Virus genome (UHGV): UHGV-1592266
Strand: one strand, 5' to 3'
Source: a virus
Length of the DNA: 17,097 bases
Under the pieces are notes generated by a model. It worked only from the letters and a program-made list of their open reading frames with translations, did not search any database and was not told the DNA's origin. Numbering within the stretch: position 1 is the first letter of the stretch; each line of letters starts with the position of its first letter. A program made the position numbers and the translations under genes. This document shows positions 4,909-13,768 of this stretch, piece after piece.

Positions 4909-5057
4909 TTCCTGCGATACCACGGAAGGTTGATAGCTGATTTCATCGCTTTATTTGCTTCAAGCCACATTTTTGAATCACCAATAAATCTGGCTATTAC
5001 TGCTTTGTTCTGTGCAGCACGAAGCATCTGGTGATTGATGGCTATTTCATTGCGCAT
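4905..5057 (-). CDS. kil: Kil-like host-killing / FtsZ-inhibitor peptide (50 aa)
   Basis: Lies immediately downstream of cIII, overlapping it as kil does in lambda. The motif KAVIARFIGDSKMWLEA resembles my recollection of lambda Kil (..IATFIGDEKMF..). Identification is from memory only. Confidence 0.4.
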   Translation of the reverse strand: MRNEIAINHQMLRAAQNKAVIARFIGDSKMWLEANKAMKSAINLPWYRRK

Positions 5058-5173
5058 AATAAGACCTCAACTCTTTTCCATCCGTCACGTAATTTACGGG
5101 TGATTCGTTCAAGTAAAGATTCATTTAATTGGAAGGCACCCATGCGAGCGCCTCCCGCGATTGCGTAAATCAT
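5042..5173 (-). CDS. cIII: cIII-like protein (inhibitor of FtsH-mediated cII degradation)
   Basis: MIYAIAGGARMGAFQLNESLLERITRKLRDGWKRVEV... contains the lambda cIII core ESLLERITRKLRDGWKR. ATG is preceded by AAGGA. Confidence 0.75.
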   Translation of the reverse strand: MIYAIAGGARMGAFQLNESLLERITRKLRDGWKRVEVLLCAMK

Positions 5174-5197: not shown

Positions 5198-6166
5198 TTA
5201 GTAGGTTATTTTTGTTGCGAATACTTCGCCTTTTACGATGGCTGTTATGATATTTTTAGCAACATCTTCTGATGCACCAACCTTGATAAGGTCAGCAAGT
5301 ATTTTGTTATTTACTTCTTTCCGGTGAGCTTTATCCTTTGCTCTACGCTCTTCTTCGTCCTTGATTCTTTTTTCTTCTGCTATTCTGGCTTGCTCTTTTG
5401 CTTCAGCCTCGCGCCGGATTCGTTCAGCCTCCTCCTGTGCTTTTCGGCGTTCTGCTTCAATTGCCGCCTGCTTTTCTCTTTCAGCTCGTTCTGCTGCCTC
5501 TTTTGCTTCGCGCTGTGCTCGTTGCTCGGCTTCAATGCGTTCACGCTCTGCACGTTCCGCTGCGGCCTTAGCTTCTGCTTCTCGCCTTGCTGCTGCTTCA
5601 ATTTCGGCTTTTGCCTTTGCTTCGGCTTCTGCTCTGGCTTTCTCTTCAGCTTCTCTTTTTAAGCGTTCTTCATGCTCTCGCTTTTCCTGCTCCGCTTTGA
5701 GTCTTGCCTCTTCTCTTTGGCGGTCAAATTCGCGATCCATCAAAATAGCTATTTCATGGTCAGACTCAATTTGCTTTGCGAGAGCTTCAGCTGCTGCCTT
5801 AGCTTCTTCTTCGGCTTTAATCCGCGCCTGTTCTTCCTCATAATCAGTAAGAGGCTGGCGCGCCTTGGCTTTCAGCTCATCAAGGCGATCACGCACTGTC
5901 TTGCGGTTGGCATCAATTAGCTTTGGAATTTCCTTCAGTTCAGCAACAAGGTCTTTGCCAAGACCATCGAGATATGTTTTCGTCTGCGCAACTTTATACG
6001 CCAGAGAAGCGATCTCCTTTCTGCCCTTTGCCGTTGTGATATCAGGCACAAAGGACATAACTTCACGTTCAACCTTTTGAAGGATTTCTTCAATCTGGTC
6101 GGCAGACTGAAATACAGTCATTGCATTTGCTTTTTCAATAACAACTAAATCTGTTACTTCACTCAT
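5198..6166 (-). CDS. Coiled-coil phage protein with a long Ala/Glu/Arg/Lys-rich central region (322 aa)
   Basis: Start placed at MSEVTDLVVIEK..., preceded by GGAGG. The central ~150 aa are low-complexity (AEAKAKAEIEAAARREAEAKAAAERAERERIEAEQRAQREAKE). Family not recognised with confidence. Confidence 0.6.
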   Translation of the reverse strand: MSEVTDLVVIEKANAMTVFQSADQIEEILQKVEREVMSFVPDITTAKGRKEIASLAYKVAQTKTYLDGLGKDLVAELKEIPKLIDANRKTVRDRLDELKAKARQPLTDYEEEQARIKAEEEAKAAAEALAKQIESDHEIAILMDREFDRQREEARLKAEQEKREHEERLKREAEEKARAEAEAKAKAEIEAAARREAEAKAAAERAERERIEAEQRAQREAKEAAERAEREKQAAIEAERRKAQEEAERIRREAEAKEQARIAEEKRIKDEEERRAKDKAHRKEVNNKILADLIKVGASEDVAKNIITAIVKGEVFATKITY

Positions 6167-6178
6167 ATATCCTCCGTC

Positions 6179-6207
6179 AAAAAAATTGCCCTCACACTGG
6201 AGGGCAA
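6179..6207 (-). terminator. Intrinsic terminator on the minus strand, directly upstream of the coiled-coil gene RBS
   Basis: Read on the minus strand: TTGCCCTC-CAGTGT-GAGGGCAA hairpin followed by TTTTTTT. Confidence 0.6.
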
Positions 6208-6298
6208 AGAAGATTTCCAATAATCAGAACAAGTCGGCTCCTGTTTAGTTACGAGCGACATTGCTCACATAGCAGACTCGCAAATCTGCTATAGGTGC

Positions 6299-6460
6299 TT
6301 ATTCGCATCGCATGACAACATCAAATTTTTCGAGATTACTTTGTCGCAACAATCCCTCTTCTACGCGGTCAGCTTTTCTATAATTATCAAATTCGAAATG
6401 TTTAATTACTTCTTTCGTTTCTCGCTCTATAACTTCAACAATGTATTTCTTATTCATCAT
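6299..6460 (-). CDS. Small hypothetical protein (53 aa), second gene of cassette 2
   Basis: Start placed at MMNKKYIVEVIERETKEVIKHFEF...; its ATG overlaps the stop of the upstream 92-aa gene (ATGATGA). Confidence 0.45.
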   Translation of the reverse strand: MMNKKYIVEVIERETKEVIKHFEFDNYRKADRVEEGLLRQSNLEKFDVVMRCE

Positions 6461-6735
6461 TCTTCCCCCAGGGCCTTGCTGATGGCTGCCTTGGCTCGTT
6501 TGTATTCGGTTAACTCTCTGCACCCTTCGTCATGCTCGTAAAGGAAGACAAGCTCTTGCAGTGCTTCAAGCAAATCAGGAGCTGCTGCTATCAGTAGCGC
6601 ATCCTCCCTTTCATTTCTTGTTGCTGCTTCAATGTATGTGTCACCAATCGTCACACCATGGAACGTAGTCATCATCTCGTTGACGTTTCTAACCGTGTAC
6701 TTCCATTTACCAGGCGTACCCTTAAACTCTTTCAT
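6457..6735 (-). CDS. Small protein with conserved AAPDLLEALQ...AISKALGEE C-terminal module (paralog B)
   Basis: Start placed at the ATG at 6735 (MKEFKGTPGKWKYTV...), preceded by ACAGAGGTG. The C-terminal half (AAPDLLEALQELV...AKAAISKALGEE) parallels the 83-aa protein at 7256..7507. Confidence 0.55.
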   Translation of the reverse strand: MKEFKGTPGKWKYTVRNVNEMMTTFHGVTIGDTYIEAATRNEREDALLIAAAPDLLEALQELVFLYEHDEGCRELTEYKRAKAAISKALGEE

Positions 6736-6738
6736 ATC

Positions 6739-6783
6739 CACCTCTGTTGTTTATGCCAAAAATAAAGGCCGACTATGCGGCCT
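6739..6783 (-). repeat. About 45-bp direct repeat, copy 1: terminator hairpin plus conserved ACAGAGGTG leader
   Basis: Plus-strand cacctctgttgtttatgccaaaaataaaggccgactatgcggcct is near-identical to the copy at 7512..7557. On the minus strand it reads as hairpin GGCCGCATAGTCGGCC followed by TTTATTTTT. Confidence 0.7.
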
Positions 6784-7252
6784 AGTAGAATACCCAATTT
6801 TCTGTTTCTTGGTTGTGTCCAAAGTTATATTCAATATCTGGTGTTGATGTATCAATATTCTTCATCCCATCAACAAGAGTTGATACAACAGCCAAATCTT
6901 GTTTGATTCTCATCAAATGGTATTTCTTCCGGCGCAATAAACTTTCAATGGCAAGTTTCTTCGTCGGGAACGCAAAAGATCTTTCTGCATTTTTTGCTAC
7001 TTTCTTAATTGCATATCTATTTCTCCTTTGTTTCCATTCCTGTAACCACTGATTTGGTGCTGGTTTAAAATTAACAATCCAATGCGCAGGAACCAACCAT
7101 GCATAATGCTCTGTCTGATGAAAAGCTATATATTGAAGTGCGAATATTTTGATTCCATCTTCTTCAACTGTCGCTTGGAATCTCCAGAAAACAGGCATTC
7201 CATCATGTTCAGTTTCTGATTCAGGAAAAGGTACGCTCCATGATTTTGTCAT
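6782..7252 (-). CDS. Hypothetical protein (156 aa), second gene of cassette 1
   Basis: ATG lies 3 nt after the stop of the 83-aa gene. The coding sequence is AT-rich. No family recognised. Confidence 0.55.
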   Translation of the reverse strand: MTKSWSVPFPESETEHDGMPVFWRFQATVEEDGIKIFALQYIAFHQTEHYAWLVPAHWIVNFKPAPNQWLQEWKQRRNRYAIKKVAKNAERSFAFPTKKLAIESLLRRKKYHLMRIKQDLAVVSTLVDGMKNIDTSTPDIEYNFGHNQETENWVFY

Positions 7253-7255
7253 ATA

Positions 7256-7507
7256 TTACTCATCTCCAAGGGCTTTGCTGATTGCTGACTGTGCTTTCGA
7301 TACTTCATCAGGATAATGGTCATTCCAGTTTTGCTTGTATGCCTTGTTTAGCATCGCTTGCAGGGCTTCGAGCAAATCAGGAGCTGCCTCCATCAATCTC
7401 ACATCACCTCGATGGATGGTTGTATCGTCAAACGTGAAATAAACCCCATCATCGTTAAATCCAGCGCCAACAACATTCCATGGCCTTTTCATTCTTCCTA
7501 CTGTCAT
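7256..7507 (-). CDS. Small protein with conserved AAPDLLEALQ...AISKALGDE C-terminal module (paralog A)
   Basis: MTVGRMKRPWNVV...EAAPDLLEALQAMLNKAYK...AQSAISKALGDE. ATG at 7507 is preceded by ACAGAGGTG. Confidence 0.55.
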   Translation of the reverse strand: MTVGRMKRPWNVVGAGFNDDGVYFTFDDTTIHRGDVRLMEAAPDLLEALQAMLNKAYKQNWNDHYPDEVSKAQSAISKALGDE

Positions 7508-7511
7508 TATT

Positions 7512-7557
7512 CACCTCTGTGTATTTATGCCAAAAATAAAGGCCGACTATGCGGCCT
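7512..7557 (-). repeat. About 45-bp direct repeat, copy 2: terminator hairpin plus conserved leader
   Basis: Plus-strand cacctctgtgtatttatgccaaaaataaaggccgactatgcggcct. The minus-strand hairpin GGCCGCATAGTCGGCC plus T-run sits 5 nt after the stop of the membrane-protein gene. Confidence 0.7.
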
Positions 7558-7561
7558 GAAA

Positions 7562-8011
7562 TTACTTAACCAATGATGCTGCATATTCGATAAGGTAAAG
7601 CTTTGGGGCCAGCCAAATTTTTAACCAAGTCATATTGGTTACTACACCAATAATAAAAATCCCCCACAGAGTCAAAACTACAACCAATGGCATGATAAGA
7701 AGATTAATATCACCTTTGCTATCCCAAACCATTGTCGGCCTGTATTTGGGATTTCCTTTCTCCCATGAATATCCTTCATCACCGATTTTACCTGTCTCAA
7801 CTCTTTGGCACTGCTTCTTCATAAACCAGAAAACCAGTGGGATTGTTAAAATGGCCATTAATGTTTTAATCAGACTGTCAACCATATTCCATAGCAGCAA
7901 CTGATGAACAACATCAGGAATCTGTGCCTGGCTGAATGAAACAGCCGCGTCTATTCCATTACTGGCTTTTTGCAGTAGTTCTACGAGAATCTTGTTTGCT
8001 TGTTCTTCCAT
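7562..8011 (-). CDS. Membrane protein with two predicted transmembrane segments, possibly superinfection-exclusion (SieB-like position)
   Basis: Start placed at the ATG at 8011 (MEEQANKILVELL...), preceded by GAGG; the ORF-track start at 8062 is a TTG. Hydrophobic stretches LIKTLMAILTIPLVFWF and INLLIMPLVVVLTLWGIFIIGVV. Sits between N and the recombination genes, where lambda and P22 carry sieB. Confidence 0.45.
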   Translation of the reverse strand: MEEQANKILVELLQKASNGIDAAVSFSQAQIPDVVHQLLLWNMVDSLIKTLMAILTIPLVFWFMKKQCQRVETGKIGDEGYSWEKGNPKYRPTMVWDSKGDINLLIMPLVVVLTLWGIFIIGVVTNMTWLKIWLAPKLYLIEYAASLVK

Positions 8012-8019
8012 ATCTAACC

Positions 8020-8184
8020 TCAAATAAGTGGTTTGCTGCGAAAATAAATACGTTCCCACCAAGTTCCGTATCTATCTATCCAGTTACACCAATCATCGAC
8101 ATTCCATTTTGTTGTGTCGCATTTTGGCAACTGGCATGAATATCCACCTTCTTTGTAAAGTCGGCGTTTGACTTTCTTGAGCAT
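8020..8184 (-). CDS. Small Cys/Trp-rich hypothetical protein (54 aa) immediately downstream of N
   Basis: ATG at 8184 lies 8 nt after the N stop and is preceded by GAGGTG. Frame MLKKVKRRLYKEGGYSCQLPKCDTTKWNVDDWCNWIDRYGTWWERIYFRSKPLI. Below the ORF-track size cutoff. Confidence 0.4.
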   Translation of the reverse strand: MLKKVKRRLYKEGGYSCQLPKCDTTKWNVDDWCNWIDRYGTWWERIYFRSKPLI

Positions 8185-8192
8185 GGCTCACC

Positions 8193-8525
8193 TCAATCGT
8201 AATAAGCTGGAATTGATTTTCCGCGTTGCTTCTGGCGGCCTGAGCAAGTCACACCCATTTCACTGCGTGGCTTGCTGTACCATGTGCGCTGATTCTTGCG
8301 CTCAATACGTTGCAGGTTGCTTTCAATCTGTTCGTGGTATTCAGCTAGCACCGTAAGGTCTATAGGATTCAGTGCGCTTTCTACTCGTGATTTCGGTTTG
8401 CGATTCAGCGAGAGAATAGGGCGGTTAACTGGTTTTGCGCTTACCCCAACCAACAGGGGATTTGCTGCTTTCCATTGAGCCTGTTTCTCTGCGCGACGTT
8501 CGCGGCGGCGTGTTTGTGCATCCAT
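8193..8525 (-). CDS. N: Antitermination protein N (lambda-type)
   Basis: MDAQTRRRERRAEKQAQWKAANPLLVGVSAKPVNRPILSLNRKPKSRVESALNPIDLTVLAEYH... is a near match to lambda N, including the Arg-rich boxB-binding N-terminus. ATG is preceded by AGGAGAA. Confidence 0.9.
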   Translation of the reverse strand: MDAQTRRRERRAEKQAQWKAANPLLVGVSAKPVNRPILSLNRKPKSRVESALNPIDLTVLAEYHEQIESNLQRIERKNQRTWYSKPRSEMGVTCSGRQKQRGKSIPAYYD

Positions 8526-8793
8526 CTGGATTCTCCTGTCAGTTAGCTTTGGTGGTGTGGTGGCTGGTAGTCTAGCTCCAGCTTGTTGAGTCTCATTCGG
8601 AGGGGTATAACCGGCACCCCAGCGATTTTTCCATGCGACAACGTGCGCGTTATGGCGGCCTTATCGCCCGCGGCTCCCCATCTCGTCCACGCTATTGCTA
8701 GCGTTGGGAGCGCTTCACCGCTCAACAGTAGGTAAGCACTTGCCAGTGACTAGCTGGCTTCACCACACCCCAAAGCCTTCTGCTTTGAATGCT

Positions 8794-8823
8794 GCCCTTC
8801 TTCAGGGCTTAATTTTTAAGAGC
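8794..8823 (-). promoter_or_regulatory. nutL site (boxA plus boxB) for N-dependent antitermination
   Basis: Minus strand reads GCTCTTAAAAATTAA-GCCCTGAAGAAGGGC: boxA-like GCTCTTA followed by the boxB hairpin GCCCTGAAGAAGGGC. Lies downstream of the OL/pL region and upstream of N. Confidence 0.8.
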
Positions 8824-8863
8824 ATCACCTTCATGGTGGTTAGCGCGTCCTGCTGATGGCTTA

Positions 8864-8936
8864 AAATTACAAGAAAGATTGTATACTGTAAACAAGAAAT
8901 ATTGTAAAAAGAGGCGTGAAAAACAAACTCCGTTGT
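8864..8936 (-). promoter_or_regulatory. OL operators (three 14-bp ACAA-N6-TTGT sites) overlapping the presumed pL promoter
   Basis: Sites ACAAGAAAGATTGT (8869..8882), ACAAGAAATATTGT (8892..8905) and ACAAACTCCGTTGT (8923..8936). Candidate pL on the minus strand: -35 TTTACA (8887..8892), -10 TAATTT (8864..8869). Confidence 0.7.
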
Positions 8937-8986
8937 TTTTAAACGGAAAATAGTTTGTTTTTTGGTTATCGAGATTGAGGTGGGGA

Positions 8987-10347: not shown

Positions 10348-10379
10348 CGCTCTTACACATCCCCGCCCTGAAAAAGGGC
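10348..10379 (+). promoter_or_regulatory. nutR site (boxA CGCTCTTA plus boxB GCCCTGAAAAAGGGC)
   Basis: CGCTCTTACACATCCCCGCCCTGAAAAAGGGC lies directly downstream of cro. It is followed by a lambda-like tR1/cII leader (...CATACATTCAATCAATTGTTATCTAAGGAAATACTTACATATG). Confidence 0.85.
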
Positions 10380-10458: not shown

Positions 10459-10737
10459 ATGCAACTTACAAGTACTCGCAAGAAAGCGAATGCAATTACA
10501 AGCAACATCCTGAATCGAATTGCTGTACGTGGTCAGCGAAAGGTTGCCGACGCGTTAGGGATTAATGAATCGCAAATTTCGCGATGGAAAGATAGCTTCA
10601 TCCCCAAAATGGGAATGCTTCTGGCTGTTCTTGAATGGGGTGTTGAAGACGAGGAGTTGGCGGAACTGGCTAAGAAAGTAGCCAGAATGCTGACAAAAGA
10701 AAAAGCCCCGAAGAACGGCGAATTCTTCGAGGCCTGA
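10459..10737 (+). CDS. cII: cII transcriptional activator (lambda-like)
   Basis: Start placed at MQLTSTRKKANAITSNILNRIAVRGQRKVADALGINESQISRWKDSFIPKMGMLLAVLEWGV..., similar to lambda cII (..SQISRWKRDWIPKFSMLLAVLEWGV..). ATG is preceded by AAGGA. Confidence 0.85.
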   Translation: MQLTSTRKKANAITSNILNRIAVRGQRKVADALGINESQISRWKDSFIPKMGMLLAVLEWGVEDEELAELAKKVARMLTKEKAPKNGEFFEA

Positions 10738-13694: not shown

Positions 13695-13768
13695 CCATCT
13701 ACATCACTGAGCTAATAACAGGCCTGCTGGTAATCGCAGGCCTTTTTATTTGGGGGAGAGGGAATTGG
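13691..13768 (+). CDS. Possible 25-aa hydrophobic peptide
   Basis: MTIYITELITGLLVIAGLFIWGRGNWRL. ATG overlaps the upstream stop (ATGA) and is preceded by GGGAG. Too short to support firmly. Confidence 0.25.

Follow-up and report, generated by a model that had tools for sequence, protein, structure and literature searches.

The stretch from the antiterminator gene N to cIII in this virus genome (UHGV-1592266) is best read as the accessory-gene section of a lambdoid pL operon, carrying hairpin-plus-T-run signals of two different kinds; we put the probability of this reading at about 0.72. The first kind is a single hairpin, h1, which is homologous to lambda tL2a at the 3′ end of the PreS/LPR1 small RNA. 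The second comprises h2 and h3, two copies of a junction element that probably marks the joints between swappable genes. All coordinates refer to the window, the whole 17,097-nt stretch of DNA that was analysed, and the features that matter here are the following.

10365..10379, plus strand: nutR boxB (boxB match).
8794..8824, minus strand: nutL, with boxA-like TGCTCTTAA (8824..8816) and boxB GCCCTGAAGAAGGGC (8808..8794) (boxB match and sequence read).
8193..8525, minus strand: antiterminator N, lambda type (Pfam N36, 1.6e-26; phrog_271).
8020..8184, minus strand: small DUF5484 gene, directly after N (Pfam DUF5484, 1e-10; phrog_1871).
7562..8011, minus strand: membrane-protein gene, Sf6 gp34 family, ATG at 8011 (phrog_3054, 1.6e-64).
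7516..7557, minus strand: h3, a copy of the junction element with its hairpin at 7557..7540 and a T-run that ends at 7532, followed by GGCATAAATACACAG (scan, fold, homology breaks at both edges).
7506..7533, minus strand: promoter-like match TTGGCA-16-AATAAT, its -10 overlapping the ATG (10 of 12 consensus positions).
7256..7507, minus strand: 83-aa gene, first of cassette A (phrog_1273, 4.6e-18).
6782..7252, minus strand: 156-aa gene, second of cassette A (phrog_1636, 2.7e-112).
6742..6783, minus strand: h2, a copy of the junction element with its hairpin at 6783..6766 and a T-run that ends at 6758, followed by GGCATAAACAACAGAGG (scan, fold, homology breaks).
6457..6735, minus strand: 92-aa gene, first of cassette B, paralogue of the 83-aa gene (phrog_1273, 2.1e-24).
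6299..6460, minus strand: 53-aa gene, second of cassette B (phrog_6949, 3.4e-40).
6269..6292, minus strand: 8-bp hairpin that lacks a T-run and adjoins the PreS-like RNA at its 5′ end (fold -14.9 kcal/mol with flanks).
6179..6266, minus strand: PreS/LPR1-like sRNA, 88 nt, its putative 3′ end being h1 (alignment to lambda and Sf6; Sf6 record; preprint; conservation at 122 sites).
5198..6166, minus strand: coiled-coil gene, Sf6 gp33 family, 'TolA' in some records (phrog_1376, 2e-110).
5042..5173, minus strand: cIII (Pfam Lambda_CIII, 4e-15).

The stop codon of the 156-aa gene (TAG) overlaps the first bases of the h2 stem, the 53-aa and 92-aa genes overlap by ATGA, and the 83-aa and 156-aa genes occur together in the E. 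coli p11A prophage. Neither the cassette proteins nor the membrane and coiled-coil proteins gave an informative match when searched by sequence against Pfam, NCBIfam, PADLOC and PDB. The two-cassette arrangement, sought at ≥80% coverage, was absent from the phage records searched and from 5,426 complete E. coli genomes.

The original prediction placed minus-strand hairpins with T-runs at 6179..6207, 6758..6782 and 7532..7556, and all three are there, each with the layout of an intrinsic terminator, a G+C-rich stem-loop followed by a T tract on the sense strand. In h1, an 8-bp stem with 5 G-C pairs (TTGCCCTC/GAGGGCAA, 6207..6186) encloses the loop CAGTGT and is followed by T7 (6185..6179), GAC, the ribosome-binding site (RBS) GGAGG (6175..6171) and the ATG at 6166. 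The h2 stem has 6 bp, 5 of them G-C (AGGCCG/CGGCCT, 6783..6766), with the loop CATAGT and a tail, TTATTTTT, that ends at 6758, 12 nt from the RBS AGAGG (6745..6741). For the gene that follows, a GTG start at 6741 gives way to the ATG at 6735 as the most likely one, matching the Bas106 annotation (92 aa). The h3 stem (7557..7540) is identical to that of h2; its tail ends at 7532 and lies 13 nt from AGAGG (7518..7514), with the ATG at 7507.

These signals stand out statistically. Strict criteria (a stem of 6 bp or more that includes 5 or more G-C pairs, and 6 or more T in 8) return 5 sites in the window against 0.19±0.42 (maximum 2) in 100 dinucleotide shuffles, and h1, h2 and h3 make up three of the five, all sense to the leftward operon; they also lie in the three largest non-coding gaps from N to cIII. 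A looser terminator scan gave no enrichment (22 sites against 17.2±4.5 in shuffles). However, h2 and h3, which had been counted as separate observations, are a single element in two copies, 774 nt apart and identical at 34 of 34 positions. The three signals are real, yet the finding is largely ordinary, because h1 corresponds to the characterised lambda tL2a and h2 and h3 are copies of a common joint sequence.

The identity of h1 follows from comparison with lambda. The 88 nt up to the end of its T-run (6266..6179) align without gaps and are identical at 86 of 88 positions, the two differences being a base at the foot of the stem (A for G) and T7 in place of T6, and the fold predicted for the sequence is that predicted for the lambda sequence. 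In lambda, LPR1/PreS lies between ea10 and ral and ends at tL2a, a termination site of the early left operon; it is an Hfq-bound RNA of about 88 nt that is processed to about 68 nt, is expressed only in lytic growth and raises expression of host dnaN (Silverman et al., bioRxiv 10.1101/2024.10.31.621285). The same preprint takes at least 92% identity as its criterion for PreS conservation, a level that 86/88 exceeds. The G+C hairpin and poly-U 3′ end of an Hfq-type sRNA, matching tL2a, are present at h1; the equivalent hairpin is marked 'tL2A, homology to lambda' in the Sf6 GenBank record, and tL2A is annotated at the equivalent position in that of HK620. Standard pairing of the six core stem positions is seen in at least 94% of 122 related sites, 121 of which retain a T-run of at least five, and the loop occurs in 8 variants. 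A d'Aubenton-Carafa-type discriminant, with energies taken from ViennaRNA, scores h1 at about +23 and lambda tL2a at +22. We conclude that h1, judged by homology, is the orthologue of lambda tL2a and first of all the predicted 3′ hairpin and U-tail of PreS/LPR1.

The likeness to lambda extends to the setting: N and nutL lie upstream, and the position within the pL operon is the same, with the accessory genes on one side and ea10/cIII on the other. The immediate neighbours differ: upstream are the 53-aa gene and another hairpin where lambda has ral-proximal sequence, and downstream is the Sf6 gp33-type coiled-coil gene where lambda has ea10. At least four downstream contexts follow the h1-type T-run in related sites, and h1 thus stands beside an RBS because different downstream modules join directly after the T-run of a conserved sRNA module. 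For annotation, 6266..6179 would be entered as a PreS/LPR1-type sRNA gene ending in tL2a and not as a bare terminator before the coiled-coil gene. On the RNA, h1 would serve both as Rho-independent terminator and as Hfq-binding 3′ end of the ~88-nt PreS/LPR1. By homology, PreS would be made from the pL transcript in lytic growth and would target host mRNAs such as dnaN, as its expression and Hfq binding in lambda lead one to expect. Rfam returned no match, either for the whole window at the gathering threshold or for 5900-8950 at E≤1, PreS being apparently absent from the Rfam set. One point counts against our preferred explanation: if N-modified polymerase ignores tL2a, the lytic PreS 3′ end is left to be accounted for.

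The machinery for antitermination is encoded in the window. N is of lambda type: Pfam N36 is matched over profile positions 1-35 of 35 (1.6e-26), in keeping with an arginine-rich N-terminus of the boxB-binding sort. A nut site of boxA-like sequence and boxB lies upstream of the first terminator; this boxB is identical to that of lambda nutL, with 0 matches expected in shuffles. Given a lambda-type N, nutL and a tL2a homologue, N-dependent read-through is the textbook expectation and, by analogy, plausible: polymerase modified at nutL would in this phage continue past h1 into the coiled-coil gene, cIII and kil. The pL terminators of lambda (tL1, tL2a-d and tL3, with those of HK620 and Sf6 by homology) are likewise hairpins with T-runs that follow nutL and N in the leftward early operon. 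Like tL1, h3 is the first such signal after N and would be the first intrinsic stop. In contrast, neither h2 nor h3 has a sequence counterpart among the annotated tL sites; the lambda counterpart, with a weakened stem, lies just after ral (34056-34088) and bears no terminator feature in the two lambda records examined. A literature search on tL1/tL2/tL3 returned unrelated papers only.

The element shared by h2 and h3 consists of AGGCCG-CATAGT-CGGCCT followed by TTATTTTT and GGCATAAA. Over its conserved length of ~41 nt it comprises the hairpin, the T-run and then GGCATAAAYAACAGA, and its core, GGCCTTTATTTTTGGCATAAA, was found in at least 120 viral contigs. At 123 sites in related phages it links 10 upstream with 13 downstream sequence classes in 30 combinations. 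When sequences are compared pairwise across it, identity drops from ~100% on one side to the random level on the other, the switch falling at most 10-20 nt from the core; mosaic breakpoints thus lie at the edges of the element. The 3′ end of the membrane-protein gene bears the junction hairpin in many phages (upstream context U4), and two copies bracketing this gene occur in other phages. Joints without the element also exist, the 156-aa gene directly abutting DUF5484 in Bas106 and the PreS region in the p11A prophage. The element, with 13 downstream contexts among its 123 sites, offers gene mining a sequence handle for accessory genes in the lambdoid N-to-cIII slot, the home of ral.

These comparisons suggest that, in many lambdoid and P22-like phages, the element marks where one exchangeable gene cassette is joined to the next. 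Recombination by Red or RecA needs a minimum of ~30 bp of homology (PMC2327257), and at 34-41 nt the element is long enough for Erf/Red or RecA to use it as a homology patch. Such a role would explain both the copies that flank the cassette of the 83-aa and 156-aa genes and the fixed distance to the next RBS, and we infer that recombination takes place at the element. The RBS distance of h2 and h3 is constant because it is inherited with the element and not tuned gene by gene. We suggest, tentatively and as a possibility that we ourselves rate below even odds, that the ~41-nt element and the 88-nt PreS together form a docking slot in lambdoid and P22-like phages. The two would provide homology arms for Erf/Red-type cassette swaps, one arm would double as a partial terminator that places each cassette under N control, and the presence of two copies would reflect a recent capture.

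Short conserved boundary sequences are an established idea for lambdoid phages (Clark 2001, as cited in PMC3029335), and 'bsq' features are present in the Sf6 and CUS-3 records. As far as these GenBank features and the secondary citation of Clark et al. 2001 (HK620) describe them, the bsq are short conserved sequences at non-homologous joints with many flank combinations, and the element likewise lies, short and conserved, between unrelated flanks in different phages. Sf6 bsq4 differs in that it covers the PreS/tL2a stretch and not the element with its type II hairpin. Although the idea itself is not new, the element provides a clean and countable case in which mosaic joints fall on a short conserved sequence, and bears on the debate over homologous versus illegitimate recombination in phage evolution. 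An integron- or MITE-like origin of the repeats was considered and rejected; the stems are only 6 bp, the repeats are direct, and the cassette genes have no match to a recombinase or integrase family.

How well h2 and h3 could stop polymerase is a separate matter. Without flanks, the h1 stem-loop folds at -12.5 kcal/mol and those of h2 and h3 at -9.1 kcal/mol (-16.4, -9.6 and -9.7 kcal/mol, respectively, with flanks), which makes the latter pair borderline. Their discriminant, by the same formula, is -4 to +2.5, with a 6-bp stem, a 6-nt loop and an interrupted T-run. In lambda (-4.3 kcal/mol), in Sf6 (-2.9 kcal/mol) and also in mEp213 the counterpart of this hairpin is weak or disrupted, and this decay implies that termination at the element is not universally maintained. 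Stem changes are one-sided only (wobble), accompanied by loop changes, in both hairpin families, and compensatory double changes, sought at the 122 and 123 sites of the two, were not seen; structure-specific selection is therefore inseparable from plain sequence conservation. These models indicate that h2 and h3 are borderline terminators only. Termination may nevertheless be presumed at h1, h2 and h3 from their sequence, and the junction element, once transcribed, probably acts on unmodified polymerase as an intrinsic terminator of weak to moderate strength.

With this in view, the proposal that the downstream genes are conditional on N holds insofar as the structures are sense-strand, intergenic and terminator-like, N and nutL are present and h1 corresponds to tL2a. 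Its stronger form, in which three equivalent terminators were placed to make the downstream genes strictly N-dependent and silent in a lysogen, with the cassettes acting in lytic-phase counter-defence, is possible but doubtful. All three hairpins do lie just before an RBS, and in lambda and Sf6 this slot is taken by ral, which is known to act against restriction and has a related hairpin at its end. Yet h1 is part of the PreS sRNA, h2 and h3 are inherited, borderline junction copies whose equivalent has decayed in several phages, and the cassette proteins match neither a family of known function nor a PADLOC defence-system model. Silence in a lysogen, which the original prediction ascribed to the terminators, is already given by repressor at OL/pL, so that the terminators would add insulation at most. 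Nor does a lytic function of the cassette genes follow from them; position in the pL operon alone implies early lytic expression, and the terminators thus add no argument on what these genes do.

The opposite view, that h2 and h3 are recombination linkers only, the hairpin being incidental and of no use as a polymerase stop, is unlikely. It accommodates a discriminant of about 0 and the 30 combinations of flanks, whose breakpoints fall at the edges of the element, as well as the decay in lambda, Sf6 and mEp213 of the hairpin but not of the T-run and GGCATAAA. Against it stands the repeated placing of a G+C stem directly before the T-run. The 3′ end of ral has a structurally different hairpin (GGCTGCC-TGAT-GGTGGCC) before the same kind of T-run, and Salmonella phage Oslo has a variant with a 7-bp stem and 3-nt loop. 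Two unrelated 5′ arms (ral type and type II) and the Oslo variant thus all keep such a stem, the best of these hairpins score +14 to +15, and all copies are on the sense strand.

A post-transcriptional role for h2 and h3, as 3′ hairpins against exonucleases after processing or as 5′ structures of the downstream genes, giving graded expression along the operon, is improbable. The hairpins start at or within a few nucleotides of the upstream stop codon, and a hairpin lacking a T-run also lies where the 53-aa gene ends, immediately ahead of PreS, but the T-run would be superfluous for such a role and is the best conserved part of the element.

Morons, reportedly described by Juhala et al. in 2000, are said to be units of promoter, gene and terminator inserted between phage genes, and the extra genes here resemble them in that each is followed by a terminator-like hairpin; here, however, there is no conserved promoter, and the units lie inside and in line with the early operon. 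A search for promoters between terminator and gene gave a single consensus match, TTGGCA-16-AATAAT (7533..7506), and the own promoter upstream of an inserted gene that characterises a moron was not found. Independent expression of the 83-aa cassette from this match, possibly in a lysogen, is very improbable: although no other site in the window matches the sigma-70 consensus as closely (10/12) and the p11A prophage has it too, its -10 overlaps the ATG, so that transcription starting ~7 nt downstream would leave out the start codon. This -10 is missing from all other element contexts, h2 included, and shuffles contain more promoter-like matches than the window does (25.4 against 14).

Salmonella phage Oslo also has the hairpin at 6269..6292, which abuts the PreS-like RNA; the hairpin at this place in lambda is a different one, of 14 bp.

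The early region of a lambdoid/P22-like phage makes up the window. Of the phage records, those of Escherichia phage CurroJimenez_Bas106, HK633 and Sf101 come nearest, the highest coverage by any single record being 59%; judging by a gene annotated as Erf in Bas106, the nearest relative, this phage too appears to carry an Erf-type recombinase. N-dependent read-through of pL-operon terminators is the textbook expectation, and its sequence parts are all found in the window. In pL order, the membrane-protein gene is followed by h3, the 83-aa and 156-aa genes (cassette A), h2, the 92-aa and 53-aa genes (cassette B), and a non-coding stretch with h1 at its end, then by the coiled-coil gene (Sf6 gp33 family), cIII and kil. 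The hairpins, each with a T-run, are listed as recovered by a consensus scan:

~8840-8900, pL region: 434-type operators (from sequence)
8824..8816, minus strand: nutL boxA-like TGCTCTTAA (from sequence)
8808..8794, minus strand: nutL boxB GCCCTGAAGAAGGGC, identical to lambda
8525..8193, minus strand: N (Pfam N36, 1.6e-26)
8184..8020, minus strand: DUF5484 gene, directly 3' of N in pL order
8011..7562, minus strand: membrane-protein gene (phrog_3054, Sf6 gp34 family)
7557..7540 and 6783..6766, minus strand: h3 and h2, each with a 6-bp stem (5 G-C), tail TTATTTTT, stem-loop ΔG -9.1 kcal/mol
6207..6186, minus strand: h1, 8-bp stem (5 G-C), tail T7, stem-loop ΔG -12.5 kcal/mol

All three structures thus lie where the original prediction had placed terminators, close ahead of ribosome-binding sites (RBS): the T-run is 3 nt from the RBS at h1 and 12 and 13 nt at the other two, the gene 3' of h2 most likely starting at ATG 6735 to give 92 aa. 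Because a loose scan showed no enrichment of terminator-like sites in the window (22 versus 17.2±4.5 in shuffles), the scan was redone with strict criteria (≥6 bp, ≥5 G-C pairs, ≥6 T in 8; 100 dinucleotide-preserving shuffles), giving 5 sites in the window versus 0.19±0.42 (maximum 2) in shuffles. Three of the five are h1, h2 and h3, all sense-oriented; between N and cIII, no other non-coding gap is as large as the three they fill. The remaining two are 13720..13743 (plus strand), in the nin region, and 10703..10735 (minus strand), which falls within the 3' end of a plus-strand ORF of 112 aa (presumably cII) a short way 3' of nutR; the latter resembles the terminus of an OOP-type antisense RNA.

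The observation therefore stands, and its interpretation is partly right, although the parts were misassigned. Nothing categorically new was found: h1 corresponds to an already known terminator that ends an sRNA, and h2 and h3, one 34-nt sequence in two identical copies spaced 774 nt apart, belong to a widespread element of a known kind found at cassette joints.

BLAST of the window against phage records led to Sf6, whose GenBank record labels the h1 hairpin 'terminator, homology to phage lambda, tL2A', overlapping 'boundary sequence' bsq4; the HK620 record has the same tL2A annotation. When the window is aligned with lambda and Sf6, an 88-nt block, opening with GAGCAATG at 6266 and closing with the last T of the run at 6179, is lambda-identical bar two changes, a stem-foot base (A for G) and the T count (seven versus six). 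At this very position, with ea10 and ral on either side, a 2024 preprint (10.1101/2024.10.31.621285) reports a lambda sRNA, LPR1, since renamed PreS; there it is described as ~88 nt long, processed to ~68 nt, strongly Hfq-enriched, seen from 10 min post-induction and absent in the lysogen, increasing dnaN translation, aiding phage DNA replication, and occurring at ≥92% identity in 2,537 genomes. The window's homology block begins at the would-be 5' end of the 88-nt RNA, and its predicted fold matches that predicted for lambda. We conclude that h1 is, on sequence homology, the counterpart of lambda tL2a and the predicted end of a PreS-type sRNA.

Across 122 related sites, which comprise 48 sequence variants, ≥94% keep standard pairing at the six core stem positions, stem changes are wobble-compatible, loop variants number eight, and a run of ≥5 T follows the stem in 121. 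Directly 3' of the T-run at least four unrelated continuations are seen, namely lambda ea10, a tL2b/cIII leader of the HK620 type and the coiled-coil gene with either of two RBS variants. That h1 stands so near an RBS therefore comes from its position at the end of a conserved sRNA module, onto which different genes have been joined. An 8-bp hairpin without a T-run (ATAGCAGA/TCTGCTAT; 6269..6292, minus strand), ending 2 nt before the PreS-like 5' end, may act as a signal for processing or for 3' protection. At this spot lambda has another hairpin, of 14 bp, and Salmonella phage Oslo (L131 2173..2200) has the window-type hairpin ahead of a diverged PreS-like sequence.

An exact search of IMG/VR with GGCCTTTATTTTTGGCATAAA matched at least 120 contigs. 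We sorted the flanks (26 nt on each side, upstream of the hairpin and downstream of the element) of 123 sites with full flanks, drawn from the matches listed plus other loci, lambda and the window included; among these there are at least 10 upstream classes, at least 13 downstream classes and at least 30 combinations. On the upstream side the classes include gene 3' ends (ral, the membrane-protein gene, an Nmad5-family gene, the 156-aa gene); on the downstream side the sequence runs into PreS or into diverse small genes with their RBS and ATG. The limits of homology can be seen in pairwise comparisons. Upstream of h3, 150 nt of the window are ~99% identical to an IMG/VR contig (L009) whose downstream side is random, whereas downstream 149/150 nt are identical to the E. 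coli p11A prophage, with random sequence upstream; at h2, the upstream side matches three other loci, identity being gone ~15 nt past the core. Several phages, including Sf6, have two copies around the membrane-protein gene, at the ral end and after the gene, and in lambda the element lies directly 3' of ral (34056-34088). Among the matches listed and the other loci compared (~126 in all), the window is the only locus with two copies of the type II hairpin, AGGCCG-CATAGT-CGGCCT. The element, 34 nt identical or ~41 nt counting the shared GGCATAAAYAACAGA, is longer than the ~30 bp of homology that Red or RecA recombination is said to need as a minimum (PMC2327257). It resembles the 'boundary sequences' of Clark et al. 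(2001), in the sense in which PMC3029335 cites that term. The Sf6 and CUS-3 records carry 'bsq' features for such sequences; Sf6 bsq4 spans the PreS stretch and not the junction hairpin, for which the records examined hold no annotation. These comparisons argue that h2 and h3 are two copies of this joint element.

It is uncertain whether h2 and h3 would also act as intrinsic terminators. In favour, the ral-type hairpin GGCTGCC-TGAT-GGTGGCC, with a stop codon in its loop, has only GGCC and the T-run in common with type II, yet both fold (the ral type at -10.8 to -13.3 kcal/mol), and in Oslo a variant with 7 bp and a 3-nt loop, AGGTCGC-AAT-GCGGCCT, precedes T6. However, a classical discriminant of the d'Aubenton-Carafa type, computed with ViennaRNA energies, gives only -4 to +2.5 for h2/h3, whereas h1 scores +23, the ral type +15 and Oslo +14, and the equivalent hairpin has decayed in lambda (-4.3 kcal/mol), Sf6 (-2.9) and mEp213. 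Among the matches listed, stem variants are chiefly wobble or loop changes, a few are stem-disrupting, and no compensatory change was found. Given this mixed evidence, h2 and h3 would be weak to moderate terminators at best. As the first strict intrinsic signal 3' of N, h3 is placed much like lambda tL1.

On its own terms the original prediction would be refuted by a promoter between terminator and gene, and one candidate exists, TTGGCA-16-AATAAT at 7533..7506, the window's best promoter-consensus match. Its -10 overlaps the ATG, however, and it is missing at h2 and in the other contexts of the element compared, so that a promoter here gets little weight. The terminators had also been held to silence the genes in a lysogen, where pL is already shut by the repressor; at most they would add insulation against stray read-through, for example past the weak hairpin 8948..8928. 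Nor do they bear on the proposed lytic role of the cassette genes, since early lytic expression is to be expected of any gene placed in the pL operon. Searches of these genes against Pfam, NCBIfam, PADLOC and PDB sequences gave nothing informative, and their PHROGs are all 'unknown function'; the sole hint, a circumstantial one, is the presence of ral in the same slot.

The 92-aa (6457..6735) and 83-aa (7256..7507) proteins, both minus strand, are paralogues (phrog_1273) with AAPDLLEALQ and a C-terminal AISKALGxE in common. Similar N-termini, such as MEFKGTEGKW, open several other downstream contexts of the joint element, which may therefore travel with this gene family. Recombination between the 34-nt direct repeats (6750..6783 and 7524..7557) should allow deletion of the 83+156-aa cassette, so the arrangement would be either recent or selected; neither the phage collection nor 5,426 E. 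coli genomes yielded the two-repeat arrangement as a whole. In the p11A ST131 prophage (L125 3394..4017), an Nmad5-family 'putative nucleotide modification protein' gene lies between N and the junction hairpin, taking the place of the window's DUF5484 and membrane-protein genes. Phage mEp213 (L130 1976..3733) has two N genes, lambda-like and HK620-like, in a single leftward operon. The first of its PreS copies breaks off within the tL2a loop, where the sequence toward the second N starts, and elsewhere in this locus there is a second tL2a-type end, which is complete.
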